Shown: positions 23,472 to 38,274, numbered from the stretch's first letter. The stretch: DNA of 64,000 bases from Deltaproteobacteria bacterium (GCA_040218735.1 JAVJQW010000062.1:256001-320000), one strand, 5' to 3'. Made by a program: numbers and translations. Notes: generated from the sequence alone by a model not told the origin.

Positions 23472-24431
23472 CTACTCCGCGGCCTCTTCTTCCGTCGCGT
23501 TCGGGTCCTTGCCCGCGATCTCTTCCTCGGTCGCCTCGATGACGTCGGCGTCCCAGCTCTCGCCTTCCTTGAGCTGCCAGCTCGGCGGGATCGGGAGCTT
23601 CTCCCACATCAACATCGCGTCGTAGTTCCCGCCGCCCTTCTTGGCCGTGTACGAGTACTCGATGTCGACGCTCTTCGCCTCGCGCGGCATCGTCGGGAAC
23701 CAGATGTAGCCAGGCGAGACGTACGCCGGGAACTCCGCGATGTACTTGTGCGGGTTCTGGATGATGATGCGCGGGGTCGCGTCACCCTCGGCGCGGCCGA
23801 GCACCTTCTCGACCTCTTCTTCGACCTTCTTGCGGCCCTTCTTCACCTCTTCGGTGGTGACCGTCCAGTAGCGCATCCCTAGCTGGCCCCACGAGACGCG
23901 AGTGCTGTCCTCGATGCCCCAGAAGAAGAACTTGCCCTCGAGGATCGGGTTGCCCTCGTCGTCGCGCGTCCGCTTCATCTCGTAGATGTCGAGGCGCGTG
24001 TCGCCCTCCCCGCGCATCGTGAGGACGGGCTGCCACTTGGCGTCCATCAGCGTGTCGTAGGCGCCCTTCACGATGTCGTAGCCCTCGAGCATCGACTTGC
24101 GCTGGGCCTCCTTGATGAGCCCCTCCTTGAAGTTCGCCTCGACGTCGGCCTTGTACTGCTCGGCGTTCCGCCACTCCGGCTTCTCGTCGTAGACCGACTT
24201 CTTCAGCTCGCTCTCGTACGCGCCGATCGCCGCGTGGACGCCACGCACGTACGCGCCGTCGTCCTCTTCCTTGGCGGCCGCGCGCGCCTTGTCGGCGAAC
24301 GAGCGACGGGCGTCCGCGAGGCGCTCCTCGATGCGGACCCGCGCCTCCTCGTTGCTCTTCTGGACCCAGAGCCAGCCGCCGCCGACGACCAAGATCCCGA
24401 AGATGATGACGATACTGAAGAATCGCTGCAT
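23472..24431 (-). CDS. membrane-anchored hypothetical protein
   Basis: N-terminal TM helix, strong GC3 bias and GGGGGA RBS. Confidence 0.8.
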   Translation of the reverse strand: MQRFFSIVIIFGILVVGGGWLWVQKSNEEARVRIEERLADARRSFADKARAAAKEEDDGAYVRGVHAAIGAYESELKKSVYDEKPEWRNAEQYKADVEANFKEGLIKEAQRKSMLEGYDIVKGAYDTLMDAKWQPVLTMRGEGDTRLDIYEMKRTRDDEGNPILEGKFFFWGIEDSTRVSWGQLGMRYWTVTTEEVKKGRKKVEEEVEKVLGRAEGDATPRIIIQNPHKYIAEFPAYVSPGYIWFPTMPREAKSVDIEYSYTAKKGGGNYDAMLMWEKLPIPPSWQLKEGESWDADVIEATEEEIAGKDPNATEEEAAE

Positions 24432-24495
24432 GGCTGGTCCCCCGTATTACAGTTTGGGCGAGGGGCGCAATCCATTACCTCGCGGCGCTCGGTCA

Positions 24496-25158
24496 TCAGT
24501 CCGACCGCCACAGCGGCTCGAACAGGTCGATCGTCCACCGGCTGAAGACAACTTCCGCGCGCGACGTCACTTTCGACTTGTCCGAAAACCGCCAGGCCCG
24601 GCAGCCCGCGTCGAGCGCCCCCTCCACGTCCACGTCCTCGCGATCCCCCACGTGGACAATCGACGCGAGCGGTGCGCCGGTGGCCTCCGCCACCGCCTCG
24701 AACGCACGGCGGCTCGGCTTCAGCACCCCCAGCCGATCCGCGCCGATCCGCGCCCGCCAGGGCAGATGATCCAGCCCCAGGTACGCGAGTTTGTCGTCCG
24801 GCGCGTAGTCGGAGAGCACCGCGAGCTGCACCCCCTTCGCAGCCGCCGCCTCCAGCGCCCCCGCCACGCCCGGGTAAGGGCGCACGCGGCTCGTCAGCGC
24901 CTCGGGCATCGCCTCGCGCAGCTCGTCGAGCCGCTCGGCGCACGCGTCGACGGTCATGTTGAACGACGGCGCGATGAGCTCCGCCTCGCGGCGCTCGAGC
25001 GCCTGCGGCGAGTCGAAGGGCCCCTCATGGCGGATCTTCTCCCGCGCCGCGACGAGCGCGACGAGGAGGCCACGTTCCCACCGCAGCCGCCACGCGACGC
25101 GCAGCCGGCGGACGCGGTACAGCGTCCCGTCGACGTCGAGCGACAGCACGGTGGTCAT
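24496..25158 (-). CDS. HAD family hydrolase
   Basis: DVDGTLY, LSD, KP and HVGDREDVD motifs. Confidence 0.9.
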   Translation of the reverse strand: MTTVLSLDVDGTLYRVRRLRVAWRLRWERGLLVALVAAREKIRHEGPFDSPQALERREAELIAPSFNMTVDACAERLDELREAMPEALTSRVRPYPGVAGALEAAAAKGVQLAVLSDYAPDDKLAYLGLDHLPWRARIGADRLGVLKPSRRAFEAVAEATGAPLASIVHVGDREDVDVEGALDAGCRAWRFSDKSKVTSRAEVVFSRWTIDLFEPLWRSD

Positions 25159-26843
25159 TCATCGGCTCCGTAGCGCGCGACGACGCCGAGGCCCTTGACG
25201 AAGCCGACGTCCTTCGCGAGGTGCGGCGGCTTCACGTGGCTGTCGGGCGCCCCGTCCGAGACCCGGCGCCGCCGCTCACGGTCGTACGCGCCGGGCTCCA
25301 CGACCCACAGCTCGGGTGCGCCGAGGCGCTGCGAGCTGCGCTTCGCGGCGTACTCCATGTTCACGTCGGACAGCGCCGCTTCGAACGCGGCGAGGTATCT
25401 TCGCGCCGCGCCTTCATCGAGCGCCGCGCGCGGCTCCACCGCGAACACGTAACGCGGGGGCTCGGTCAGCCGGCACGCGACGGTGAACCCGGCCGCGGCG
25501 ACCCCCGTCTCGGCTTCCGCGCGCGCGGCGGCGTCGACGACGTGTCGCTCGCCGATCTTCTCGCCGGTGATGCTGAGCATGTTGCCGCCCTTGTGCACGA
25601 AGGCGACCTCGGCGGTGTTCTCGAAGTGGCCGACACACTCCACGACGTCGTTGATGTCGTAGCGATACAAGCCGTGCGACCCGGTGATCAGGACGCGGTA
25701 GCGCTGCCCGAGCTCGAGCCCGTCGGCGAGCACCGGATCACCGCCGGCCTCGGGGACGAACTCGAGGAAGTGCCCGAGCACCGAGACCACCCCGCCCTTC
25801 GACTGGGGCGACAGCGGGATCGAGAAGCCGCCCTCGGTCGCGAGGAAGCCGTAGTCGAGCGCTTCGCGCCCCGGGTAGTAGCGCTCGAGCTGCGGCGTGT
25901 AGAACGGCGCGCTGCCGCCCTTCCAGCAGCACAGCCCGCACAGCTCGGGCCACAGATCGGTCGCGACGACGTAGCCGTGTTTGGCCTTCGAAGCCTCCAG
26001 GCGTCGCGCGGCGTCGGGGCGCTTGCGGAGCGCCATCGCGAGCGGCTTCTTCGTCGCGTCGGGGAGCGCGTCGAGCCCGCGCATCGTCCCGTCGTACAGA
26101 TCCTTGGCGAGCGCCTCCGCGTCCTCGTCCAGCTTCTTCGCGAAGAGCACGAGCGTCGAAGGGTTGATCGCCGCCGCGAGCGACACGCGCTCCTGCGCGG
26201 CGAACCGGAGGATCGCGTAGTACTTGAGATCGAAGTCGTCGATCGCAAACGCCGCGCGCGGGGTCGCATCGAGCGGGTTCCCGGTGAGCGCCTGCTCCAC
26301 CGCGCCGGGTTTCGTCGTGAGGCCGACGGTGACGGAGCCGTACGGCGTGCCCTTCGGCGTCGTCCCCTCGACGCGCGGCGAGTGCATGGTGAGGATCCGC
26401 CCGCGCACGAGCCCCGGGAACGCCTGCACGACCTGTCGCGCCCACACCCGCCGCGGGAGCCGATACTCCGCGACGTACACCGGCGTGACCGGGATGTACT
26501 TCGGCGTCCCGGTGGTGCCGCTCGAGCGCCCGAAGAAGAACGGCTCATCGGGGATGAGGACGTTCGACTCCCCCTCGACCATCCGCGACAGGTACGGCTC
26601 GAAGTCGTCGTACGTACGAACGGGGACCGCGCGTTGGAAGTCCTCGACGGTGCGAATCGATCCGAAGTCGTGCTCGCGCCCGATCGCCGTGTCCTTCGCG
26701 CGGTGCACGAGCGCGAGGAGGCGCGACGTCTGCGCGGCGCGGGGATCCTGCGTCGCCTCCACGAAGCGACGCCACGACCCGGAGAACAACAGCCGCGCGC
26801 CCGCGCGGATGGCGTCGTCGGGGAGCAGTCCGATCCCCTTCAA
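25155..26843 (-). CDS. GH3 family acyl-acid amido synthetase-like protein
   Basis: RSSGTTG..KYIP, ATEG and GLYRYDINDVV motifs. ATGA overlap with the HAD gene. Confidence 0.9.
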   Translation of the reverse strand: MKGIGLLPDDAIRAGARLLFSGSWRRFVEATQDPRAAQTSRLLALVHRAKDTAIGREHDFGSIRTVEDFQRAVPVRTYDDFEPYLSRMVEGESNVLIPDEPFFFGRSSGTTGTPKYIPVTPVYVAEYRLPRRVWARQVVQAFPGLVRGRILTMHSPRVEGTTPKGTPYGSVTVGLTTKPGAVEQALTGNPLDATPRAAFAIDDFDLKYYAILRFAAQERVSLAAAINPSTLVLFAKKLDEDAEALAKDLYDGTMRGLDALPDATKKPLAMALRKRPDAARRLEASKAKHGYVVATDLWPELCGLCCWKGGSAPFYTPQLERYYPGREALDYGFLATEGGFSIPLSPQSKGGVVSVLGHFLEFVPEAGGDPVLADGLELGQRYRVLITGSHGLYRYDINDVVECVGHFENTAEVAFVHKGGNMLSITGEKIGERHVVDAAARAEAETGVAAAGFTVACRLTEPPRYVFAVEPRAALDEGAARRYLAAFEAALSDVNMEYAAKRSSQRLGAPELWVVEPGAYDRERRRRVSDGAPDSHVKPPHLAKDVGFVKGLGVVARYGADE

Positions 26844-26863
26844 CGCGATGGTCGCGAGCCCGC

Positions 26864-27787
26864 TCAGGGCTCGACCTTCACGAGCCGCGCGGCGGCGTGC
26901 TCGGGGGCGACGGGGTTGAACGGCAACAGCTCGTCGAGCGCCGCGCGCGCCGTGACGATCGGCCGCACCGCGAAGTGCCAGTGGAAGTGTTTGGCGTCAG
27001 CGCCCGCGTCCGGCGGCGCGGTGCGCAGCACATAACGATACGCCGGGCCGTCGAGGGCGGTCGTCAGCCGCGACAGCGTACGCGCCAGGAGCCCGGCGGC
27101 GTCTTCGAGGTCCGCGTCCGACGCGGCGAGGAAGCTCGGGTGATGGCCCTTCGGTGCGATGAGGATCTCGAACGGATTTGCGGAGGCCCACGGGCAGAGC
27201 GCGACGTGCCGCAGCCCGTCCTCGACGATGCGCACCTTCTCGTTTCGCTCGAAACGAATCATGTCGCACAACACACACGCCCCGGTCTTCCGGTGGTGCC
27301 CGAAGAACGCGGTGAGGATCTGCCGCGCCGCGTCCGGCACGAACGGGAGCGCGAACACCTCCGAAGTCGCCCCTTCGGTCGTCGCCCCCGCGGCGGCGCC
27401 GTGCGCCTTGGTCACGCCGAAGAACCGCGTGCGGTTGTCGTCGGCGAGCTCGAGCATTCGGTCGCGATACAGCCGCAGCGTCGCCGCGACGGTCGCGTGG
27501 TCGAGCGACTCCAGCGGCGCGTCGACGCTCTCCACGATCTGCTCGTGACGCCCGGCGGAGGTCGCCGCGGTGTACAGGCCGTCCGCGAGCCGCGTGCGGT
27601 CCACGGGTGACTTCCGATCCAACACCGGGTCGGGCGCGTAGTCGTGACTCGGCGCCTCATCGACGGTCACCTTCGCGAGCGGCACGGCCGCCGACGTCAC
27701 GACGATCTCCCGCTCGGGGGCTTCGGCGGTAGCGACGAGGATCCAGCGCCCGGTCAGCGGATCCCGTCGGGCCTCGGTGCTGGACAT
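26864..27787 (-). CDS. GalT-like (HIT-fold uridylyltransferase) protein lacking the catalytic HPH motif
   Basis: RRDPLTGRWIL, GRHEQIVES, CVLCD, PFEILIAP, FHWH and NPVAPE are present. The expected GASLEHPHSQ reads GATTEGATSE. Confidence 0.8.
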   Translation of the reverse strand: MSSTEARRDPLTGRWILVATAEAPEREIVVTSAAVPLAKVTVDEAPSHDYAPDPVLDRKSPVDRTRLADGLYTAATSAGRHEQIVESVDAPLESLDHATVAATLRLYRDRMLELADDNRTRFFGVTKAHGAAAGATTEGATSEVFALPFVPDAARQILTAFFGHHRKTGACVLCDMIRFERNEKVRIVEDGLRHVALCPWASANPFEILIAPKGHHPSFLAASDADLEDAAGLLARTLSRLTTALDGPAYRYVLRTAPPDAGADAKHFHWHFAVRPIVTARAALDELLPFNPVAPEHAAARLVKVEP

Positions 27788-27820: not shown

Positions 27821-29824
27821 TCAACGGGCCGGACGCGAGGTGAGCACCACCGAGAACTCGCGGTGGGCCCCGGGCGCGAGATCGAGATCGAAGGCGAGCA
27901 CCTCGACACGCCCGAGGAGCGTGGGGTGCAGGCCATCCTCCCGCCGGGTCGTCGCTTCGAGCGCGTACGTGTGGCGACGCTCGGCGTCGGCTTCGAGGGC
28001 GACCTCGACGCCGGACTCCGCGTCGACGACCGCGGTGACGTCGGCGCCCGCCGGCCCGACGAACGTGGTCGGGACCTCCACGACGAACGCGCCTTCGAGC
28101 GCGCCCTCGCCCGTGTTCGTGACGCGGTAGTCCACCGAGAGCCGCGCCTGCTCCATGTCGAGCGCGACGGTCTTCTTCACCGCGAGCGGTAGCCGCGCGG
28201 CGTCGGCCGCGAGGTCGAGCCGCACGGTGACGACGTCGTCGGAGTCCTCACCCGCGACGTCGAGTGATTCGATCGCGTAGTCCACGTCCGGGAGCCCGGA
28301 GCGGTCGTGGGCCTCCGCGTCCGCGAGGACGTCGGGTTCGGGGTGACGCGGCAGCACCCGGTCCACGAACAACGCGCGTGGGCGCACGTCGACCGGCCCG
28401 CTACGATACGGCTCGGCGTGTCGCGCGACGACGTCCGCGATCGCGAGGCCCGAGAGTTTGTCGTCGCAGTCGACAACGGTCCCGCCCCCGTGGGGACGCA
28501 CGACGACATGTAAATACCGGCTCTCGAGCACGACCTCTTCGCGGCCGTCGAGATCCAGGTCCTCTTCCTCGTACGCGACGTAGTCGTCCTCGCCCTGCTG
28601 GAGGGCGTCGAGGATCCGCTCCGCTTCGAGCAAGGCGGCATGCGCGCCGCGCCTGAGGTGCGCGGTGTAGATCCCGCCGAACAACCCGTGCCAGTAAACA
28701 CACGCGCTCTGGCCTCGGTACAGCGCGCGTTGCGCAGTCCCGAGGTGATCGCCGACCTCGTCGCTCAGGCCACCGCCTTCGCTCGCGTCGATCGCGACCT
28801 CCATCTCGCTCTGCATGCGATCCGAAACGCGGAGCATCTTCTTGTGGAGACGATCCGCCTCCGGGTACTTCGCGAGGAACGCACCGAAGTTGCGGCCCTG
28901 CACCCGCGGCGTCGCGACGTCCGCGAGCTGCCGCTCCTCGAGCGTCAACGTGGTGCGCTCGCGCTCCCGACTCGCGGCGGCGGGGAGCGCCCAGGTCATC
29001 AGCTCGTCGTAGGCGCCCTGCGCGAGGTACACGCGGCCCCGCGGTGGCGTGGACTCGAGGAGCTCGGTCGGGAGCTTGGTCTCGACGCGCCCCTGCGCCT
29101 GCGCTTCGTCGAGCGCCGCGAGGAACCGTTCGAGCCAGCCCTGCTCGAACACCCAGCGGTGGGTGTCCGGCCACAGCCCGAGCTTCTCGGCGTCGTCGGC
29201 GTAGACGACCGCGCCGTCGCCGGGGCTCTCGACGATCGTGCGGAGGACGTCGTCCGGTGCATTGAATGGAATCGCGTAGCGGAGGCTTCGGTGAATCGGG
29301 AACAGCGACACCGGCGCACCGGCACGCTCGGTGACGAAGTGCCCGCCGACCTCCTCCGCGGACAGCCCCGCGTCGAGGAAGTGCCGATCGTCGACGAAGG
29401 TGTACGCGAGCTTCTGGTTGAAGAGCAGGCGCGGGAGCTCCGGCTCCCAGACGCGCTCGGTCAGCCACGCGCCGCGCGGGCGCGCGCCGAGGTAGCGCTC
29501 GCAGAACATCCCCATCATCGCGAGCTGGCCGGTGGCGTCCGACTCGGGGATCTGGGTGAGGACCGGCTCGTAGAAACCGCCACCGAGCAGCTCGGCGCGC
29601 GGCGTGCTCACGAGGGCGCGGATCTGTTCCATGAAGTCCGGCGCGTGGGTCTTCAACCACTCCAGGAGCGCCCCCGAGTAGTGGAGCGTCACGCGGACTT
29701 CGGGGTGCGCTTCGAGCGCTTCGAGGAGCGGCCGGTAGCAGTCCGTCAGCGCGCGATCCATCACGTGTCGCAGGTTGTGCGGCGGTTGGTGGTGATGGAG
29801 GACGAAGACAAACGGGCGCGCCAT
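27821..29824 (-). CDS. GH57 4-alpha-glucanotransferase/alpha-amylase
   Basis: HHHQP, GGFYEP, WLTERVWEP (nucleophile E), DDAEKLGLWP (acid/base D) and YWHGLFGGIY. Confidence 0.92.
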   Translation of the reverse strand: MARPFVFVLHHHQPPHNLRHVMDRALTDCYRPLLEALEAHPEVRVTLHYSGALLEWLKTHAPDFMEQIRALVSTPRAELLGGGFYEPVLTQIPESDATGQLAMMGMFCERYLGARPRGAWLTERVWEPELPRLLFNQKLAYTFVDDRHFLDAGLSAEEVGGHFVTERAGAPVSLFPIHRSLRYAIPFNAPDDVLRTIVESPGDGAVVYADDAEKLGLWPDTHRWVFEQGWLERFLAALDEAQAQGRVETKLPTELLESTPPRGRVYLAQGAYDELMTWALPAAASRERERTTLTLEERQLADVATPRVQGRNFGAFLAKYPEADRLHKKMLRVSDRMQSEMEVAIDASEGGGLSDEVGDHLGTAQRALYRGQSACVYWHGLFGGIYTAHLRRGAHAALLEAERILDALQQGEDDYVAYEEEDLDLDGREEVVLESRYLHVVVRPHGGGTVVDCDDKLSGLAIADVVARHAEPYRSGPVDVRPRALFVDRVLPRHPEPDVLADAEAHDRSGLPDVDYAIESLDVAGEDSDDVVTVRLDLAADAARLPLAVKKTVALDMEQARLSVDYRVTNTGEGALEGAFVVEVPTTFVGPAGADVTAVVDAESGVEVALEADAERRHTYALEATTRREDGLHPTLLGRVEVLAFDLDLAPGAHREFSVVLTSRPAR

Positions 29825-30083: not shown

Positions 30084-30917
30084 TCACCCCAACCGGGCGA
30101 CGATCTTCGAGACGAGCGCGATGAAGTCCTCTTGGACGGCGGCGCCGGCGGCCTTCACTTCGTCGTGGGAGAGCGGCCCGGCGGCGAGGCCGGCGCCCTT
30201 GTTCGAGATGCACGACAGGCCGAGGACGGACGCGCCCATGTGGCGCGCGGCGATGACCTCGAGGACGGTCGACATGCCGACCGCGTCGGCGCCGAGGCGA
30301 CCGAGCATCCGCACCTCCGCCGGGGTCTCGTAGGACGGTCCGAGCAGACCGGCGTACACCCCTTCGCGCAGCTTCAGCTCGATCGACTCCGCGACCTCAC
30401 GCGCGACCTGGCGCAGGTCCGCGTCGTAGGGATCCGTCATGTCCGGGAAGCGCGGGCCGAGCGCCATGTCGTTCGGTCCGAGGAGCGGGTTCGTGCCGGT
30501 GAGGTTGAGGTGGTCGGAGATCAGCATGATCTCCTTCTCGTCGAAGTCCGGGTTCACGCCGCCCGCGGCGTTGGTGACGATCAGCCGCGTCGCGCCGAGC
30601 CGCACCATCACGCGGATCGGGAACACGACCTCCGACGCCGGGTACCCCTCGTACAGGTGCACGCGCCCCTGCATCGCGACCACCGGCACACCTTGGAGCG
30701 TGCCGATGACCAGGCGCCCCTCGTGGCCTTCGACGGTCGACGTTCGAAAGCCCGGGATCCGATCGTAACCGACCGTCCCCGCGATCTCGATGCCGTCGAC
30801 GAGACCGCCGAGCCCGGAGCCGAGCACGATCCCGAGCGTCGGCTGCGCGCCGGGCACGGCTTCACGGACGGCCTCGACCGCTCGCTGAATCACCACGGAC
30901 TGGGTTTCGTTCTCCAT
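30084..30917 (-). CDS. punA: purine-nucleoside phosphorylase (trimeric, PunA/XapA type)
   Basis: LGSGLG, GRVHLYEG, TNAAGG, GPSYETPAE, VGMSTV and SHDEV motifs. Confidence 0.95.
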   Translation of the reverse strand: MENETQSVVIQRAVEAVREAVPGAQPTLGIVLGSGLGGLVDGIEIAGTVGYDRIPGFRTSTVEGHEGRLVIGTLQGVPVVAMQGRVHLYEGYPASEVVFPIRVMVRLGATRLIVTNAAGGVNPDFDEKEIMLISDHLNLTGTNPLLGPNDMALGPRFPDMTDPYDADLRQVAREVAESIELKLREGVYAGLLGPSYETPAEVRMLGRLGADAVGMSTVLEVIAARHMGASVLGLSCISNKGAGLAAGPLSHDEVKAAGAAVQEDFIALVSKIVARLG

Positions 30918-30941
30918 GCGCGTCTCCCTCGGCGTCGCGAG

Positions 30942-32252
30942 CTACAGCTCGCCGAGCCGCTCCTTGATCAGCACCGTCGGCTCGGGTGCTTCTTCGGACA
31001 GCTCGATCGCGCCGAGGAGGATCTCCTTCGCGGCGGCGAGTTTGCCTTCGTCGTTGTAGTCGGCGCGCGCGATCGGCTGGCCGGCTTCGAGTGTGTCGCC
31101 CAGCCTAAAGCCGATATCGAACCCCACCGAGAGGTCGACCGCGTCGGAGGACTTCGCGCGCCCCGCGCCGAGGACCATCGCCGCCCGCCCGATCGCCTCG
31201 ACGTCGAGCCGCGACACGATGCCGGCGCGATCGATCGTCACGTCCTGCGTGTGTTTCGCGGTCGGGAGCTTGTCACGCGCGTCGAGGGACGCCGGGTCGC
31301 CGCCCTGGGCCTGCACGACCTTCCGGAGCTTCTCCAGCCCCCGTCCGTCCGCGATGGCGCGGCGCATTCGCGTCTTGCCGTCGTCGAGCGAGTCGGCGAC
31401 CCCGCCGAGCACGAGCATCTCCGCGCCGATCTCGACGGTGAGCGTGACGACGTCCTCGGGGCCCCCGCCGCGCAGCACCTCGATCGCCTCCCAGGTCTCG
31501 TTGGCGTTGCCACACGCACGACCGAGGACCTGGTTCATGTCCGTCACCAGCGCGCGGACCTTCTTGTTCATACGATCGCCGATCGAGATCATCGTGCGCG
31601 CGAGCGCCCGTGCGTCGTCGACCGACTTCATGAACGCGCCGGACCCGACCTTCACGTCGAGGACGAGCCCGTCGATCCCCTCCGCGAGTTTCTTCGACAT
31701 GATCGACGCCGCGATCAGCGGGATGGACTCGACCGTCCCCGTCACGTCGCGCAGCGCGTAGAGCTTCTTGTCCGCGGGCGCGAGCGAAGCGGTCTGCCCG
31801 ATCAGCGCGAGGTTGTGCTCGCGCACGATCTCCACGAAGCGGTCGTCGTCGATGTCCACGGTGAAGCCCGGGATCGCGGAGAGTTTGTCGAGCGTCCCGC
31901 CGGTGTGGCCGAGCGCGCGCCCCGAGATCATTGGCACCGGCACGCCGCAGGCGGCGACGAGGGGGGCGAGGCAGATCGAGATCTTGTCGCCGACGCCGCC
32001 GGTGGAGTGTTTGTCGACCTTCTTGCCGGGGATGTCGGCGAGGTCCATCACCCGGCCGGACTCGAGCATCGCGCGGACGAGCGCCGCGAGCTCGGCGCCG
32101 CTCATCCCGCGGAAGAAGACGGCCATCGTGAACGCGGCCATCTGGTCGTCGCCCACGTCGCCCTTGGTGTAGGCGTCGATCAGCCACTCGATGGCGGCCT
32201 CTTCCAGGCTGCCGCCGTCGCGTTTGGTGCGGATCAGATCCACGGCGCGCAT
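30942..32252 (-). CDS. pdp: pyrimidine-nucleoside/thymidine phosphorylase
   Basis: DKHSTGGVGDK, SGRALGHTGGTLDKL, SIMSKKLA and DVKVGSGAFMK motifs. Confidence 0.95.
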   Translation of the reverse strand: MRAVDLIRTKRDGGSLEEAAIEWLIDAYTKGDVGDDQMAAFTMAVFFRGMSGAELAALVRAMLESGRVMDLADIPGKKVDKHSTGGVGDKISICLAPLVAACGVPVPMISGRALGHTGGTLDKLSAIPGFTVDIDDDRFVEIVREHNLALIGQTASLAPADKKLYALRDVTGTVESIPLIAASIMSKKLAEGIDGLVLDVKVGSGAFMKSVDDARALARTMISIGDRMNKKVRALVTDMNQVLGRACGNANETWEAIEVLRGGGPEDVVTLTVEIGAEMLVLGGVADSLDDGKTRMRRAIADGRGLEKLRKVVQAQGGDPASLDARDKLPTAKHTQDVTIDRAGIVSRLDVEAIGRAAMVLGAGRAKSSDAVDLSVGFDIGFRLGDTLEAGQPIARADYNDEGKLAAAKEILLGAIELSEEAPEPTVLIKERLGEL

Positions 32253-32304
32253 CGTCCGCGTAATGGATCAGGTTCGCAGGGCGAGCGCAACCAGAACGCC
32301 GCTA

Positions 32305-33270
32305 TCAGAAGCCCAGGTCGTCGTCTCCGCGCGCGACGCCGCGCTCCTGCCGGTACAGGATCCCCGCCAGATCGATCCCCACGATCGGCAAGCCCTCCGC
32401 GAGGTCGATCGCGAGGAACAACGCGGGGCTCACGGGGCCGAAGTGGCCGCGAGCGCCGATGGTGAGCTGGACGGGCTGCGTGAGGTCGACCCCGGCGGCC
32501 TCCCCCGTCACCGCGATCGTGTTCCCGAGCTGGAGGTAGGGCTCGATCGCCGACACCGGCTGCACCGCGAGATGCACGAGCCAGTGGAACATCATCAAGA
32601 ACTCGGCGTCGCGCTGCGCCGTGAAGGCCGGCGCGAGGGAGAGCTCGACGAGGCCGGTGAACACGTTGACCGAGACCCCGGCCTGGAAGCGGGGGCGGAA
32701 CGTCATCAGGCGCGTCACGTACAGCTCGGGATCGTAGCTGCGGATGCTGGCGATCGCGTGCATCGGATCCGTCGGCGCCTCGAGCGCGAAGCCGATCGCG
32801 CGCGGCACTTCCGGGGCGGTCGGCGCGTAGACGTCGAACCCGAAGCCGAACGTGAGGTGCGGCCGGTTGCGGCTTCGTGGGTCGCCGGGGAGCGCCACGT
32901 CGAAGCCGCCCGCCAACCCGAGCTTGAAGTTGCCGATGAAGAACTCGTTGACCCCGGGCTTCGGCGCGTAGGCCCCGAAGGGGAGCGCGGCGACGATCGC
33001 GAGGCCGTCGGTGAGCCGCAGCGCGGTGGACAGCTCGAACGCCCACCGCACCGTCTCGCGCTGGACGTCGACCGGATCCGAGAACGCCCCGCGCGTCGTG
33101 AGGTGGAAGCGTGAGTAGCCGTGCGGGTCGAGGGTGTCGACGCTGACGAACGGGGGACGCAGGCTCACCAGATCGTTCGCGCTACCGAACTCGAAATCCT
33201 GATCGGTTTGCGCGTAGGCCGAAGCCGACGCGCCGAGGAGGACTACCGCGAGGAGCGACGCGCGATGCAT
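32305..33270 (-). CDS. predicted outer-membrane beta-barrel protein
   Basis: Signal peptide MHRASLLAVVLLGASASAYA, many alternating amphipathic beta-strands and a terminal Phe. Confidence 0.65.
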   Translation of the reverse strand: MHRASLLAVVLLGASASAYAQTDQDFEFGSANDLVSLRPPFVSVDTLDPHGYSRFHLTTRGAFSDPVDVQRETVRWAFELSTALRLTDGLAIVAALPFGAYAPKPGVNEFFIGNFKLGLAGGFDVALPGDPRSRNRPHLTFGFGFDVYAPTAPEVPRAIGFALEAPTDPMHAIASIRSYDPELYVTRLMTFRPRFQAGVSVNVFTGLVELSLAPAFTAQRDAEFLMMFHWLVHLAVQPVSAIEPYLQLGNTIAVTGEAAGVDLTQPVQLTIGARGHFGPVSPALFLAIDLAEGLPIVGIDLAGILYRQERGVARGDDDLGF

Positions 33271-33310
33271 CACGGACGGAGCATAACGCACCGCCTCGCG
33301 GAGCCAAGAA

Positions 33311-34186
33311 TCAGTACCCCTTGCCCCCGGTCTTGCACTGCACGATCGCGACAGAGCTGGAAGCCCCGATGCGGTTCGCACCCGCGGCGATCACCTTGTT
33401 GGCGTCTTCGATCGTCCGCACGCCGCCGCTCGCCTTGACCCCCAGCGCGTCGCCGACGACGTCGCGCATCAAGGCCACGTCCTCGGCCGTCGCGCCGCCG
33501 CCCGAGAACCCGGTCGACGTCTTCACGAACGCCGCGCCCGCCGCCGCGCTCAGCGTGCAGGCCATGATCTTCTCGGGGTCGGTCAGTTTGGACGTCTCGA
33601 TGATGACCTTCACCGGCGTACGTCCGGCGGCGTCGACTACGGCGCGGATGTCGTCGAGCACGTACTTGTGATCGCGCGACTTGAGGGCGCCGATGTTGAT
33701 CACCATGTCGATCTCACCCGCGCCGGCGCGGATCGCCTCGCGGGTCTCGAAGGCCTTCGCGCCCGGGGTCCCCGCGCCGAGCGGGAACCCGACGACCGCG
33801 ATCGCCTTTACGTTGGAGCCGGCGAGCAGCCCCGCGCAGTAGCGGACGTTGGCGCTGTTCACACAGACCGTCGCGAAGCCGAAGCGTTTGGCTTCGTCGC
33901 ACAGCACCTTCAGCTCGTCCTTCGTCGCCTCGGGCTTGAGCAGCGTGTGGTCGATCAGCGGCGCGACGTGGCCACACGGCGTCGCCTCGATCGGCCCGCT
34001 CGTCCCCACGCGCTTCGCGCCGAGGTTCACCGCGCCGATGACGGTGCGGGTGTCGCACTTGTCCGCGACCGCACACGACGCACACGGCGCCACGGGGCCG
34101 GCCATCGACGGGGACTGCTGCGCGATCTCCGCGCGCACGCGCTGGGTGATGATTTCGACGAGCCTGTCGACGTCGGTGTCCTTCAA
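33311..34186 (-). CDS. deoC: deoxyribose-phosphate aldolase with N-terminal encapsulation-peptide-like extension
   Basis: [43 protein letters not shown] and RIGASS motifs, plus a ~70-aa N-terminal extension. Confidence 0.95.
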
Positions 34187-34944
34187 GACTTCTCTCCTGC
34201 TAACGCCCGGCGGACCTCTTGCTCCACCACCGCACGCACGGCGTCCACGCCGGACGCGGCCGTGCTCACGGAAGCGGCCGTGCTCGCGGGCGCCGGCGAG
34301 CCGCGATGCAGGCCCGCCTTCTTCCTCAGTTCGGTCAGGTACGCGCGCTCGTCGTCCGCGAGCGGCGGCGGTGCTCCCACGCCTCCGCGCGCGATCGACA
34401 CGATGCGCGCGAAGTGCTCGACGAGCTCCACCCGAAGGTACGCGGTCTCCAGATCCGGGCCCACCGCGATGACGCCGTTGCCCGCCAAGAGCAACACGTC
34501 GGCGTGCGCGAACGCCGCACCGACCGCGCCGGCGGCCGCCGGATCCTTGGGGAGGAACCGCGGCACGAGCGGGATGTGCTCGCCGATCGAGACGAACACC
34601 TCGGGCATCGTCACCGGCCCCAGCGGGACCTCCGCGAGCGCAAACGCCGAAGCGTGCGGCGGGTGCGCGTGGATGATGGCCTTCGCGTCCTCGCGCGCCG
34701 CGTAGGCGCCGACGTGCAGCGCGACTTCACTCGGCGGACGACCGCGCGAGGTCGGCTTTCCGGCGGCGTTGCACGCGACGATCGTGTCCGGCGTGCAGAC
34801 CCGCTTGCTGACGGCGGTCGGCGTGATCAGGAAGCCGTCGCGCGACCGCAGTGACACGTTGCCGTCGTGGTTCGCCACGAACCCCTGCGCGTGCAGGAGC
34901 AGGCTGTACTCGGACACCTCGCGGCGCTGCTTGAGATCGTTCAC
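34183..34944 (-). CDS. class II aldolase/adducin family protein with C-terminal encapsulation-peptide-like helix
   Basis: [18 protein letters not shown] and IIHAHPP motifs. Ala/Ser linker followed by [16 protein letters not shown]. Confidence 0.92.
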
Positions 34945-35231
34945 CGGGTCACCCCCGGGACATCGACGGTGTCGACGATGCCGACGATCGTCTCCAGGAT
35001 CGGGAGCGTCGCCGTCAGGTCCCCCACGAGGATCTGCCGCACGCCGTTGCCCTCCTTGAGGACGAGCACCGTGTCGCCGATACCGGCCTGCGCGTTGTCG
35101 ACCGCGATGATCTCGTCACCGCGATCCTTGCCGCGCTCGTCGATCGGCTGCACGAGCATCAGCTTGTAACCGACGTAACCCGGGTGTTTGGCCGAGGCGA
35201 CGACCGTGCCGACGACGCGACCGAGGATCAT
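34941..35231 (-). CDS. EutN/CcmL family BMC pentamer (vertex) protein
   Basis: MILGRVVGTVVASAK, KLMLVQP, AVDNAQAGIGDTVL and IVGIVD motifs. Confidence 0.95.
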   Translation of the reverse strand: MILGRVVGTVVASAKHPGYVGYKLMLVQPIDERGKDRGDEIIAVDNAQAGIGDTVLVLKEGNGVRQILVGDLTATLPILETIVGIVDTVDVPGVTR

Positions 35232-35506
35232 CGCCCCGCCTCGCGATCGACCTGGTCGACGATGCCCACGATCGCGGCGTCGACGGGCACGAACCGCACC
35301 GGCGTCGCGTGGGAGGCCTCGCGCGCGCTCACGCAGTAGACGTGGTCCCCGACCCCGGCCTGCGCGGCGTCACACGCGACGATCGGCGGCGCGTCCTTCG
35401 CGTTGCCCTGGCTGTCGAGCGCCTCGACGAGGAGGAGCTTCACCCCCTCCAGGCCTTCGTACTTCACGGACGCGACGACCGTGCCGATGACCCGCGCCAG
35501 GAACAC
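35228..35506 (-). CDS. EutN/CcmL family BMC pentamer (vertex) protein
   Basis: MFLARVIGTVVASVK, KLLLV, ACDAAQAGVGD and PVDAAIVGIVD motifs. Confidence 0.95.
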   Translation of the reverse strand: MFLARVIGTVVASVKYEGLEGVKLLLVEALDSQGNAKDAPPIVACDAAQAGVGDHVYCVSAREASHATPVRFVPVDAAIVGIVDQVDREAGR

Positions 35507-35541: not shown

Positions 35542-38274
35542 CTACAGACCGAGGCCCATGGCGGTCCACACCGCCAGGAGGCGCTCCGAGAGGGCGTAAC
35601 GCGTCAACGCGAGGCCCCGCGCCGTCCTCGGGCCGACCTCCGCGAGGGCCAGCGCCGGGTCCTGGACGGCAATGAGCCCCGCGCGGTCCAACGCCATGAC
35701 CGCGGCCGGTGGCGCCTCGTCCTCCTCCGGCGCAAAGCTCAGCCCCGCGAGCAGGCGCGGATCGGTGAGGGCCGCGAAGCTGCGCGCGAGGTCGAACCGC
35801 AGACGACGGGGGTACGCGAGCAGCGCCGACGGCACCGCAGCCCACCGTGGGGGCGTGCTCCGGACCCGGACGTCGTCGGCGATACGAATGTCGATGTCCC
35901 GCCCTTCGAACGCGGTCCGCACCGCGTCGACCGCCTCGAGCGCACCCGCCGACAGCTCGGCGAGCGGCGGGGCCTCGTCGGCCTCCGTGGGGAGCGCCGG
36001 CGCTTCGAGGCGGTCCTCGAGATCGTCGATCCACCCCGGCGGCACCGGCGCCCGCGGGGTCGGCTCGAGCTCGTGCCGATGCGCTTCGTAGGTCATGCGG
36101 TCCGCGGCGTCGTCCACGCTCCGGGCGACGAGCACCGCAGAAGCGAGGAACGCACCGATCCGATCCTGCCGCTCCACACACGCCATCCGCACGCACCGCA
36201 GCGCCTCGTCGACGAGCACGTGGTCCGCGAAGCGCGTCGACAGCTCGAACGCCGTCTTCGCCGCTTCGATGTCGCCGGGGTCCACCGACAACGCGGCGCG
36301 GAGGAGCCGCACCCCCGTGCCTCCGTCCCCGCGATCCACGGCCCGCCGCGCGAGCGCGATGCGCAGGACGTTCGTCGAGGGCTCTTCGAAGCGCTCCGCG
36401 AGCGCCTGCGCGCGGTCCTCGTCGACCACGTCGACCAGCGCCGCCGCGACCTCGGCGTCGTCGGGGTCCTCGGCGCACACCCCTTCGAGGAACCGCGCGG
36501 CGACCTCGGTCCGGCCGACCGCGTACGCCGCGAGCCCGACGTCGCGCCGCACCTCGAGCTCGGCTTCGGCGGTCACGTCGAGCAACCCGTCGCACCATGG
36601 TCCACCCACGCGCGCGAGCGCGGCCGCCTCACACGTGAGCGCGGCGCGTAGCGCATCGTCGTTGGCGACCTCCCAGGCGCTGATCAGCGCGCGCTCCGCG
36701 GCGGTGAAGTCACCACCGACCCGCGCCAGGCGCGCCAGCGGCAACCCGACGTCCGCACGAAGCTCCACACCGACGCCATCGAGCCCTGCGCTCGCCTCCA
36801 CGAACCGGCCCTGGCGCACGAGGCCCAGCACGGCCTCCGCGCCCAGGCTCCCGGAGGCGTCCAGCAGGGTCGGGGCGCCGAACGCGTCCTCTTCGGTCGA
36901 CGGTGCGAAGGCCGCATCATGGAGCGTCGGCGCGTCGAACGGGCTCGCCTTCGGATCGAGCAGGGTCGGCGCATCGAAGCCCGACTCGGGCTCCGTCGGG
37001 ACGTCGGCCAACGGCGACCGCGAATCGGGTTGGGTGTCGGGGCCACGCGCGAGCATCGCCTTCGCCTCGCGCTCCACGACGCGCGCGCCCTCCGAGTCCC
37101 CCACGTCCTCGCGGAGCACCCGTGCCAGGCGCATCAGGATCGCGCCGCGGTCCGGCCCGGGCAGCCAGGTGTGCGAAGCGCCGGCCGCCAGCACGCGCGC
37201 GAGGAGGCGCGGCGCGTCGAGGGTCTTCGCGAGCCGCTCCGAAGCCGCGAGCGTCTCTTCGAGTGAGTCCTTGTAGATCGCGTTGCGGACCAGCTCGACG
37301 AGGACGCGAATGCGACGCGGTCCGTCCGTCACGTGCTCGGACAACGCGAGCAAACCGTCGGGCCCCGCCGCCGCGGCGCGACGCTCCAGCGCACGCGCGA
37401 GCCCCTCTTCGTCACCGCTGGCACGCACCACACGGACCATCGCTTCGAAGTACGTGATCTGCTGCGGCGCATCCGCGAACGCCGCAGCGCGCACGCGATC
37501 CGCGGCCGTGGGATCCTGCGCACCGTCCGCACCGCTCGCGATCTCGTCGAGCAGCGCGACGCGCCGGGGGATCGACATCCACGGCAGCACCCGCGCCGCG
37601 ACGTCGTACAGCCCCTTCGAGAGGCCGAGCTCGATCGCCTTCTCGACCAGGCTCTGGTCCAGGGGCGCCCGCGCACCGATCGCGTGACGCAGCTGCTCGA
37701 GGGCTTCGTCCGGATCGTCGTCGGTGGACGTCTCCTCGAACCGCAGCGGGCCGGTCTCGACCGCGCTCAGCTCGACCCGGCTCTTGCGCCCTTCCCGCTC
37801 CGCCGCGAGCCGATCGTCGATGCGATCCGCCGCCCGTTCCGCGTCGGCCGACAGCGGCGTGTGTGGCGAGAGTCGCGCCGCCTCCCGGTACAGACCGCGC
37901 GCCTCTGCGATGCGGCCGAGGTTCGTCGCGAGCACGTCCGCGCGCCGCACCACGAGGCGCGCGCGCGTCGCTTGTTTCTCGGTGGCGCGTGCGGCGAGCG
38001 CGAGGAGATCGGCGAGATCCTCGTGGGCCTCCATCCGCTGCGCGAGCGACAGCGCGCGTCCGATCGCGAGACGAGCGCCCGGCGCGTCCTTCAGGACTCG
38101 CCGCAGCAGCACCATCGCGGCGCGCGGGTCGTTCAGCTCGCTGTCGCGGATGTCCGCGGCGCGCACCAGCATCTCGACGCCGACATCACCGGCGAGCGCG
38201 ATGCCCGTCGCTTCCAGCTCTTCCGCGAGTCGACGCGACGCTTCGCGGTCGCGAGCGCCCTCCCCGTCCGCCAC
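35542..38274 (-). CDS. large alpha-solenoid (TPR-like) protein
   Basis: 910-aa Ala/Leu/Arg-rich helical repeats (LGRIAEARGLYREAARLSP, LRAALSVDPGD). Co-directional with neighbours. Confidence 0.7.
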   Translation of the reverse strand: MADGEGARDREASRRLAEELEATGIALAGDVGVEMLVRAADIRDSELNDPRAAMVLLRRVLKDAPGARLAIGRALSLAQRMEAHEDLADLLALAARATEKQATRARLVVRRADVLATNLGRIAEARGLYREAARLSPHTPLSADAERAADRIDDRLAAEREGRKSRVELSAVETGPLRFEETSTDDDPDEALEQLRHAIGARAPLDQSLVEKAIELGLSKGLYDVAARVLPWMSIPRRVALLDEIASGADGAQDPTAADRVRAAAFADAPQQITYFEAMVRVVRASGDEEGLARALERRAAAAGPDGLLALSEHVTDGPRRIRVLVELVRNAIYKDSLEETLAASERLAKTLDAPRLLARVLAAGASHTWLPGPDRGAILMRLARVLREDVGDSEGARVVEREAKAMLARGPDTQPDSRSPLADVPTEPESGFDAPTLLDPKASPFDAPTLHDAAFAPSTEEDAFGAPTLLDASGSLGAEAVLGLVRQGRFVEASAGLDGVGVELRADVGLPLARLARVGGDFTAAERALISAWEVANDDALRAALTCEAAALARVGGPWCDGLLDVTAEAELEVRRDVGLAAYAVGRTEVAARFLEGVCAEDPDDAEVAAALVDVVDEDRAQALAERFEEPSTNVLRIALARRAVDRGDGGTGVRLLRAALSVDPGDIEAAKTAFELSTRFADHVLVDEALRCVRMACVERQDRIGAFLASAVLVARSVDDAADRMTYEAHRHELEPTPRAPVPPGWIDDLEDRLEAPALPTEADEAPPLAELSAGALEAVDAVRTAFEGRDIDIRIADDVRVRSTPPRWAAVPSALLAYPRRLRFDLARSFAALTDPRLLAGLSFAPEEDEAPPAAVMALDRAGLIAVQDPALALAEVGPRTARGLALTRYALSERLLAVWTAMGLGL

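Follow-up and report, generated by a model that had tools for sequence, protein, structure and literature searches.

Two questions are raised by the locus described here: what the bacterial microcompartment (BMC) of the Haliangium ochraceum (HO) type does, and whether nucleoside phosphorylases encoded beside one of its loci are parts of the organelle. The locus lies in a 64-kb stretch (the window; C18:256001-320000) from a genome labelled Deltaproteobacteria bacterium, which comprises 11.6 Mb in 70 contigs and is 96.5% complete. Seven consecutive genes on the minus strand of the window encode two BMC-P vertex proteins, a class II aldolase (AldII), a deoxyribose-phosphate aldolase (DERA; DeoC), a predicted outer-membrane barrel and two nucleoside phosphorylases. 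We consider it probable that the window holds the satellite of a split HO-type BMC, with two of the three vertex genes and two cargo enzymes, placed upstream of a deo cluster whose DeoC it shares, and that the organelle serves a deoxyribose-phosphate route. Three arguments speak for such a function: DeoC is encoded in the satellite operon, the genome encodes no other DERA, and its putative targeting tag is gained or lost with the organelle. Structural and engineering work on bacterial microcompartments relies on the HO shell as its chief model, and the 2021 catalogue of Sutter et al. (PMC8217296) still described the native function of this shell as enigmatic.

The satellite operon and its DeoC

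Genes in the window were called with Pfam and NCBIfam profiles, and equivalog cut-offs were those of NCBIfam. The first gene of the string, BMC-P paralogue a (35228..35506, with a GTG start), encodes a pentameric vertex protein of the EutN_CcmL type (88.7 bits to PF03319), and the second, paralogue b (34941..35231; 80.6 bits), has an ATG start that overlaps the preceding stop codon. These genes are followed by the FucA-like AldII (34183..34944; 132.6 bits to PF00596) and by DeoC (33311..34186). The initial annotation described the four genes as a minus-strand chain joined by stop-start overlaps, which the Pfam calls and a direct reading of the DNA reproduce: the three 4-nt overlaps are ATGA, GTGA and TTGA.

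DeoC scores 274 bits against TIGR00126 (cut-off 117) over residues 74-283 and 56.6 bits against the Pfam DeoC profile, and it is the single DeoC/DERA match in the whole genome. Comparison with solved DERAs gives up to 255 bits, with conservation of the Lys-bearing motifs; the segments VKVI, VKTSTGF and VKASGG are identical or conservatively replaced relative to structures 8qps and 6d33. Ahead of the catalytic domain the protein carries a 73-residue N-terminal extension, for which the AlphaFold2 (AF2) model gives a helix at residues 3-23 (predicted local distance difference test, pLDDT, 74-84), a disordered, low-confidence linker at 24-45 (pLDDT <50 at 24-34) and a weak helix at 46-54, the confident barrel starting at residue 72. 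The N-terminal helix is the top amphipathic window of the protein, and the linker varies in length in the alignment. Terminal helices had been noticed on both aldolases beforehand: the DeoC helix appears in the model, and the C-terminal linker and helix of AldII (residues ~215-253) are conserved in 9/9 family members. A separate observation is a likeness between the extension's second half and the C-terminal segment of DeoC, with a local score of 40 against 28.6 +/- 4.7 for shuffled sequences, a value reached by 21/1000 shuffles.

The extension aligns from residue 1-7 with the DERAs of phyla that bear sugar-phosphate-utilising (SPU) BMCs, e.g., Anaerolineales. According to Dwyer, Sutter and Kerfeld (2024; PMC11585597), the SPU DERA has an N-terminal extension of about 70 residues, made of a helix and a short, poorly modelled segment, and an SPU6 DERA deprived of the homologous extension is soluble and still active. 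The DeoC of the window is very probably a cargo protein of the HO-type BMC.

The remainder of the organelle in the genome

The initial annotation held that the window contains no BMC-H or BMC-T shell genes, aldehyde dehydrogenase (AldDh), rpiB or deoB, so that the system must be split across loci. Indeed, PF00936 has no match in the 64-kb window, and all four matches of the genome lie at C61:148390-151935. Of the three PF03319 matches in the genome, one is at this second locus and the others are in the window. In order, the main locus encodes BMC-T, BMC-H (105 bits), BMC-P, AldDh (Aldedh, 106.6 bits) and BMC-T. Its AldDh starts with an amphipathic helix, which is more amphipathic than any other window of the protein and runs into a Pro-rich linker. 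The search proposed for shell genes and for an AldDh bearing an encapsulation peptide (EP) found the shell genes and a candidate for such an AldDh in one place. The terminal amphipathic helices of AldDh, DeoC and AldII are similar in pattern, and tblastn detected no paralogue of the BMC AldDh on the contig of the window.

Neither a phosphotransacylase nor an alcohol dehydrogenase was seen in the BMC loci examined. PF06130 has a single match in the genome. It lies on a third contig (C58; L121:6257-8107), where acetate kinase (414 bits) is fused to a PduL-type phosphotransacylase (248 bits) in a protein of 616 aa, and its neighbours are unrelated genes, one of the Na+/H+ antiporter family among them. 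An open reading frame (ORF) of 115 aa in the main locus (L008:11752-12099) was set aside as probably no gene, having no family match and an Arg-rich translation.

Comparison within the family

The family of the window (f1) is represented by 20 genomes, and the corresponding GTDB order and class contain the same 20. PF03319 was found in nine of them, with three matches each, and exactly one DeoC match is present in every one of the 20. The synteny called for in the earlier work holds for the core of the satellite: BMC-P, BMC-P, AldII and DeoC are contiguous in all eight of the other BMC-bearing genomes.

The DeoC match begins at query residue 1-27 in the nine BMC-bearing genomes and at 64-75 in ten BMC-less ones, the eleventh (G009) having only a DeoC fragment that could not be scored. 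When the extension was scored by reading upstream to the preceding stop codon, it was present in 9/9 genomes with BMC-P and in 0/10 scorable genomes without it, a contrast that reflects few evolutionary events because the genomes are kin and not independent. The same contrast is repeated within a single genus (g7), in which G007 has both the BMC and the extension and G006 and G008 have neither. In the nine BMC-bearing genomes the extension is built of a helix that conforms to D-[VI]-D-x-[LI]-V-[ED]-x-I-x-x-R-V, of a variable linker and of a CxxCx5C motif; in the BMC-less family genomes the helix and the Cys motif are each found in 0/10.

In the DeoC tree the extension-bearing proteins fall in a short-branched cluster of 27 rows, which also includes the BMC-less G008, and the remaining BMC-less DeoCs stand outside it on long branches. 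No direction of events was drawn from this tree because it is rooted at the midpoint and several of its forks are unsupported.

Comparison across the phylum

The phylum sample comprised 401 genomes, 156 of which have PF03319 matches (a count that includes the unpublished genome G185). From these, 40 were chosen, one per genus and with contiguous assemblies favoured, and their BMC-P pair loci were fetched. The loci were collected by whole-genome searches; a single AldII query had returned four loci. DeoC stands in the fetched satellite of 17 of the 40, and in the remaining 23 genomes it is present elsewhere in every case. Such distant DeoCs carry a similar N-terminal helix in all 22 that were inspected by eye; a regular expression recovers 20 of the 22, and 19 have the Cys motif. 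Counting all 48 extensions from BMC-bearing genomes, 42 contain CxxCx(2-6)C between the helix and the DERA barrel (in the window's DeoC, residues 35-72, within 34186-33968).

Among 27 genomes without PF03319, 25 have a DeoC, and the alignment starts at residue >=55 in 22 of these 25. When named contigs were scanned by means of the DeoC alignment, 80 loci came up; one of them, from a close relative, was already in the set, so that 79 were scored. The match covers the extension in 46 of the 79, and these include Haliangiales, Myxococcales, Polyangia, Hyalangium, metagenome-assembled genomes of Bradymonadales and SPU-bearing phyla (e.g., Anaerolineales). BMC-P lies within 9 kb in 22 of the 46.

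Relation to known systems

The HO-type BMC is described by Sutter et al. (PMC8217296) as a type I split locus found in Haliangium ochraceum and about 40 other genomes. The system described here resembles it closely. The BMC-P triplet is divided 1+2; BMC-H, two BMC-T, BMC-P and AldDh are encoded at the main locus, and two BMC-P together with a PF00596 aldolase at the satellite; neither phosphotransacylase nor alcohol dehydrogenase was seen with them in the loci examined. It differs in that the extended DeoC is a fourth, translationally coupled gene of the satellite, after which the deo cluster begins, here and in the eight BMC-bearing relatives, and in that AldII has a C-terminal helix, which is absent in 13 sampled genomes of family f9. 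The same catalogue mentions that some HO genomes have an EP-like-extended pfam01791 enzyme encoded at another site of the genome, proposes an SPU-like catabolism of nucleic acids for Myxobacteria and takes as criteria that the HO AldDh clusters with those of SPU5 and SPU7 and how the shell proteins are coloured by their HMMs.

The likeness to SPU BMCs lies in a PF01791 DERA with a homologous N-terminal extension, in an acylating AldDh as its partner and in the proposed substrate, deoxyribose-5-phosphate stemming from DNA breakdown (Axen 2014, PMC4207490; PMC8217296; PMC11585597). In contrast to SPU loci, the genome has no RpiB-like PF02502 gene, a class II aldolase is present, and the DERA on C18 is accompanied by BMC-P only, AldDh, BMC-H and BMC-T being on C61. 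Dwyer et al. state that, among BMCs, DERA is confined to SPU loci, and the words nucleoside, phosphorylase and phosphopentomutase are absent from the main text of their paper (PMC11585597). A 2025 preprint (PMC12747264) reports SPU-type compartments in deep Myxococcota and Hodarchaeales and reconstructs a cytosolic route from nucleosides to deoxyribose-5-phosphate. Titles and opening lines of abstracts revealed no literature tying HO loci to nucleoside phosphorylases.

Nucleoside catabolism is classically encoded in deo/nup operons such as deoCABD of E. coli and dra-nupC-pdp of B. subtilis. The cluster next to the satellite shares with them the grouping of deoC, pdp and a purine-nucleoside phosphorylase (PNP), and in family f30 a NupC-type transporter gene lies between these; it differs from them by the lack of deoB, by an outer-membrane barrel gene inside the cluster and by the BMC-type extension of DeoC in BMC-bearing genomes.

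The proposed route and its weak points

In the route that we propose, the two phosphorylases would act in the cytosol and release (deoxy)ribose-1-phosphate, which a mutase would convert to deoxyribose-5-phosphate; four genes of the phosphoglucomutase/phosphomannomutase (PGM/PMM) family are candidates in the genome. Deoxyribose-5-phosphate would then enter the shell, where the encapsulated DeoC would cleave it, yielding glyceraldehyde-3-phosphate as well as acetaldehyde, and the encapsulated acylating AldDh would turn the acetaldehyde into acetyl-CoA before it escapes.

As the functional idea has already been published (PMC8217296), the gain is one of supporting evidence and of a cleaner experimental design and not a new concept: as far as sequence can tell, the locus supports the hypothesis that the HO organelle processes deoxyribose-5-phosphate. 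What is new here is the sole DeoC, the homology of its extension to that of SPU enzymes and the tracking of this extension with BMC-P within the family. The earlier and broader proposal, a BMC for the sugars of nucleosides, stands in part. Its split system and its contiguous satellite were recovered, and the extension follows the BMC; the linkage of pdp and punA to the organelle did not hold, and DeoB was not found.

A more extended reading, taken as a whole, has in our judgement an even chance of being right. According to it, all catabolism of deoxyribose-5-phosphate would pass obligatorily through the HO-type BMC, because the only DERA of the genome is tagged cargo; the HO organelle would be an RpiB-less relative of the SPU metabolosomes; lineages that lose the organelle would trim the tag off this same gene in situ; and the Cys motif could add metal or redox control.

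Several observations weigh against the deoxyribose-phosphate route or its link to the organelle. Searches of the 96.5% complete genome for DeoB (TIGR01696) and RpiB (PF02502), both suggested in the earlier work, gave 0 matches each, and one step of the pathway is therefore without an assigned gene. The kinship of the genomes behind the family contrast has been mentioned above. AldII is more constant than DeoC in the satellites of other genera (38/40 vs 17/40) and could itself be the signature enzyme. A Pdp or PNP gene stands close to 6 of 33 DeoC loci without the extension, and Pdp stands close to 6 of 46 with it. The region of the Cys motif has low confidence in the AF2 model. Finally, a helix-like DeoC N-terminus was seen by eye in 4/8 inspected BMC-P-less genomes (G029, G027, G061 and G056), and the regular expression catches two of these eight (8 of the 25 DeoCs having been inspected upstream). 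A BMC-domain search, which covered three of these four genomes, gave no match in G027 and G061 and one weak match in G029. Because half of the inspected BMC-P-less genomes keep such an N-terminus, the link between extension and organelle is strong and not absolute outside the family. In G027, G061 and G056 (L114, L116 and L117) the helix-like segment comes without the Cys motif, and it may be a relic left after loss of the organelle.

The class II aldolase

The alternative that survives best assigns the signature reaction to AldII, which would act on another sugar phosphate (e.g., one resembling fuculose-, rhamnulose- or 5-deoxyribulose-1-phosphate), with DeoC as an accessory enzyme or a second entry point. 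The constancy of AldII beside BMC-P pairs argues for it, and PF00596 aldolases are the signature enzymes of the PVM, GRM5 and ACI BMCs according to the 2021 catalogue (PMC8217296). The enzyme resembles FucA, scoring 67-72 bits against solved fuculose-phosphate aldolases, and in the family of the window it ends in the EP-like helix described above.

However, AldII scores below every NCBIfam equivalog cut-off (for TIGR01086, 72.7 bits against a cut-off of 400). The residues compared with FucA are Glu73, His92, His94 and His155 in E. coli numbering, positions checked against the 1dzw alignment. The Glu and the first two His are kept in 47/47 AldII orthologues beside BMC-P pairs. The third zinc ligand, His155, is replaced by Asn (residue 156 of AldII) in 34 of the 47, including all nine of the family; it is His in 11, and the two remaining sequences stem from loci of poor quality that seem to be frameshifted. 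The chemistry of AldII is uncertain because the third zinc ligand is Asn in so many orthologues. The C-terminal helix is moreover lacking in the 13 sampled f9 genomes, among them G217 (9.42 Mb in a single contig), and was seen in only about 7 of the 38 AldII-bearing loci from other genera, whereas a helix-bearing DeoC occurs in all 22 inspected BMC-bearing genomes in which it lies away from the satellite. An AldII-centred organelle is accordingly unlikely in our estimation, although it is the most serious competitor of the deoxyribose-phosphate route.

The nucleoside phosphorylases and the deo cluster

Downstream of deoC follow, on the same strand, the barrel gene (32305..33270), pdp (30942..32252), which encodes a thymidine/pyrimidine-nucleoside phosphorylase (NF004490, 556 bits over residues 1-433), and a PNP gene of the punA type (30084..30917; NF006054, 371 bits; TIGR01700, 326 bits). 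PF01048 has three matches in the genome, this PNP among them. The gaps are 40 nt between deoC and the barrel gene, 52 nt between the barrel gene and pdp, and 24 nt between pdp and punA, which agrees with the co-directional arrangement and the gaps of 24-52 bp given in the initial annotation. On this basis all seven genes could form one operon dedicated to the organelle, the phosphorylases and the barrel having been co-opted to supply the BMC with sugars of prey DNA. Several findings are compatible with such an operon. No terminator-like site lies between the genes on that strand; the sole minus-strand site of the locus falls within the barrel ORF, and it is uninformative at 70% GC. Pdp is the single pyrimidine-nucleoside phosphorylase of the genome (one TIGR02644 match). 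Pdp follows the satellite in seven of the eight other BMC-bearing family genomes, two of these loci being cut by a contig end inside pdp, and PNP was seen in five of the eight. Furthermore, in both sampled loci of family f30 (L040/G267 and L041/G122) BMC-P, BMC-P, AldII, DeoC, Pdp, a NupC-type transporter and PNP run in one direction. The NupC homologue of the window's own genome is on another contig (C70:119054-120412).

The relatives without the organelle correct this over-reading of the phosphorylases as organelle parts. In the BMC-less family genomes PNP stands beside DeoC in 10/10, Pdp in 8/10 and the barrel gene in 5/10, there on the other strand; in two such loci (L083 and L085) the tetratricopeptide repeat (TPR) gene that elsewhere precedes the BMC-P genes abuts deoC directly. 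Because these BMC-less relatives keep the cluster, the deo cluster is the common ground of the family, and BMC-P, BMC-P, AldII and the DeoC extension are its variable part. In the BMC-bearing G007 both Pdp and PNP are absent over about 8 kb. In the other genera Pdp was found near the satellite in only 3/40 and PNP in 2/40, and among the 46 named loci with the extension Pdp is nearby in six and occurs together with BMC-P in none; neither Pdp nor PNP was found in the 22 further loci with BMC-P and an extended DeoC. Since the extension does not enrich for Pdp nearby, the adjacency of DeoC and Pdp is ordinary deo-operon synteny. Pdp and PNP, moreover, have no terminal extensions. A targeting helix on PNP was considered and rejected, as the amphipathic N-terminal window of the protein falls inside the profile match (residues 9-275). 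A dihydroxyacetone phosphate (DHAP) shunt, in which a methylthioadenosine (MTA) phosphorylase would work with the class II aldolase, was likewise discarded: PNP scores above the PNPH/PunA cut-offs, and for MTAP it reaches 69 bits vs 275.

The barrel gene also speaks against such an operon. Its strand agrees with that of deoC and pdp only in the window and in a genome of the same genus; it lies on the opposite strand in four BMC-bearing loci (L014, L015, L016 and L019) as well as in the five BMC-less relatives, and was not detected in L017, L018 and L020. Its opposite strand in nine other family genomes points to a local inversion. Because relatives carry the barrel gene on the other strand, BMC-P to punA could be transcribed as one unit in this genus alone, and one transcript running through the nucleoside phosphorylases would at most be a feature of this genus. 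The proposal that pdp and punA are joined to the BMC has thus to be replaced by a linkage to deoC, and, judged by gene order, their adjacency to the satellite is inherited deo-operon synteny and not recruitment to the organelle. A seven-gene organelle operon therefore appears quite improbable.

The barrel ORF (33270-32305) begins like a signal peptide and has no match in NCBIfam or, even at E<=1, in Pfam. Its AF2 model, built from an alignment of 11 orthologues, is a beta-barrel with a mean pLDDT of 78. Among solved folds, Foldseek matches it best to FapF at a TMq of 0.59 and to 4rl8, a COG4313 channel, at 0.54, and some of its look-alikes in the atlas carry PF13557 (transporters). Its conserved place inside the deo cluster suggests a candidate nucleoside channel.

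Another role for the DeoC extension, such as metal or redox sensing through the widely conserved Cys motif or oligomerisation, with BMC-P adjacency as an accident of synteny, is very improbable: the helix-like N-termini in four genomes without BMC-P and the resemblance of its second half to the DeoC C-terminus would fit, but the contrast within the family and within one genus, the 4-nt coupling to the AldII and BMC-P genes, the shared pattern of the AldDh and AldII helices and the solubility and activity reported for the extension-less SPU6 enzyme (PMC11585597) stand against it.

Neighbouring genes

The TPR gene (35542..38274, minus strand) encodes a 910-aa protein with weak TPR matches, lies outside the BMC and marks the break point of synteny. 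Here and in relatives it immediately precedes the BMC-P genes. Because no more than 35 nt separate its end from the first of them, the gene string starts further upstream than position 35506. A scan for sigma-70 promoters gave 0 promoter-like sites where 0.2 would be expected, which is uninformative at a GC content of 70%.

The co-directional genes downstream of punA (27821-29824 and 23472-27787) are unrelated to nucleosides; they encode a GH57 glucanotransferase-like protein, a weakly GalT-like protein, a GH3-family adenylating enzyme and a HAD hydrolase. The window as a whole has a GC content of about 70%, and over its final 6 kb (58001-64000) this value drops from about 0.70 to 0.64 and then to 0.54.

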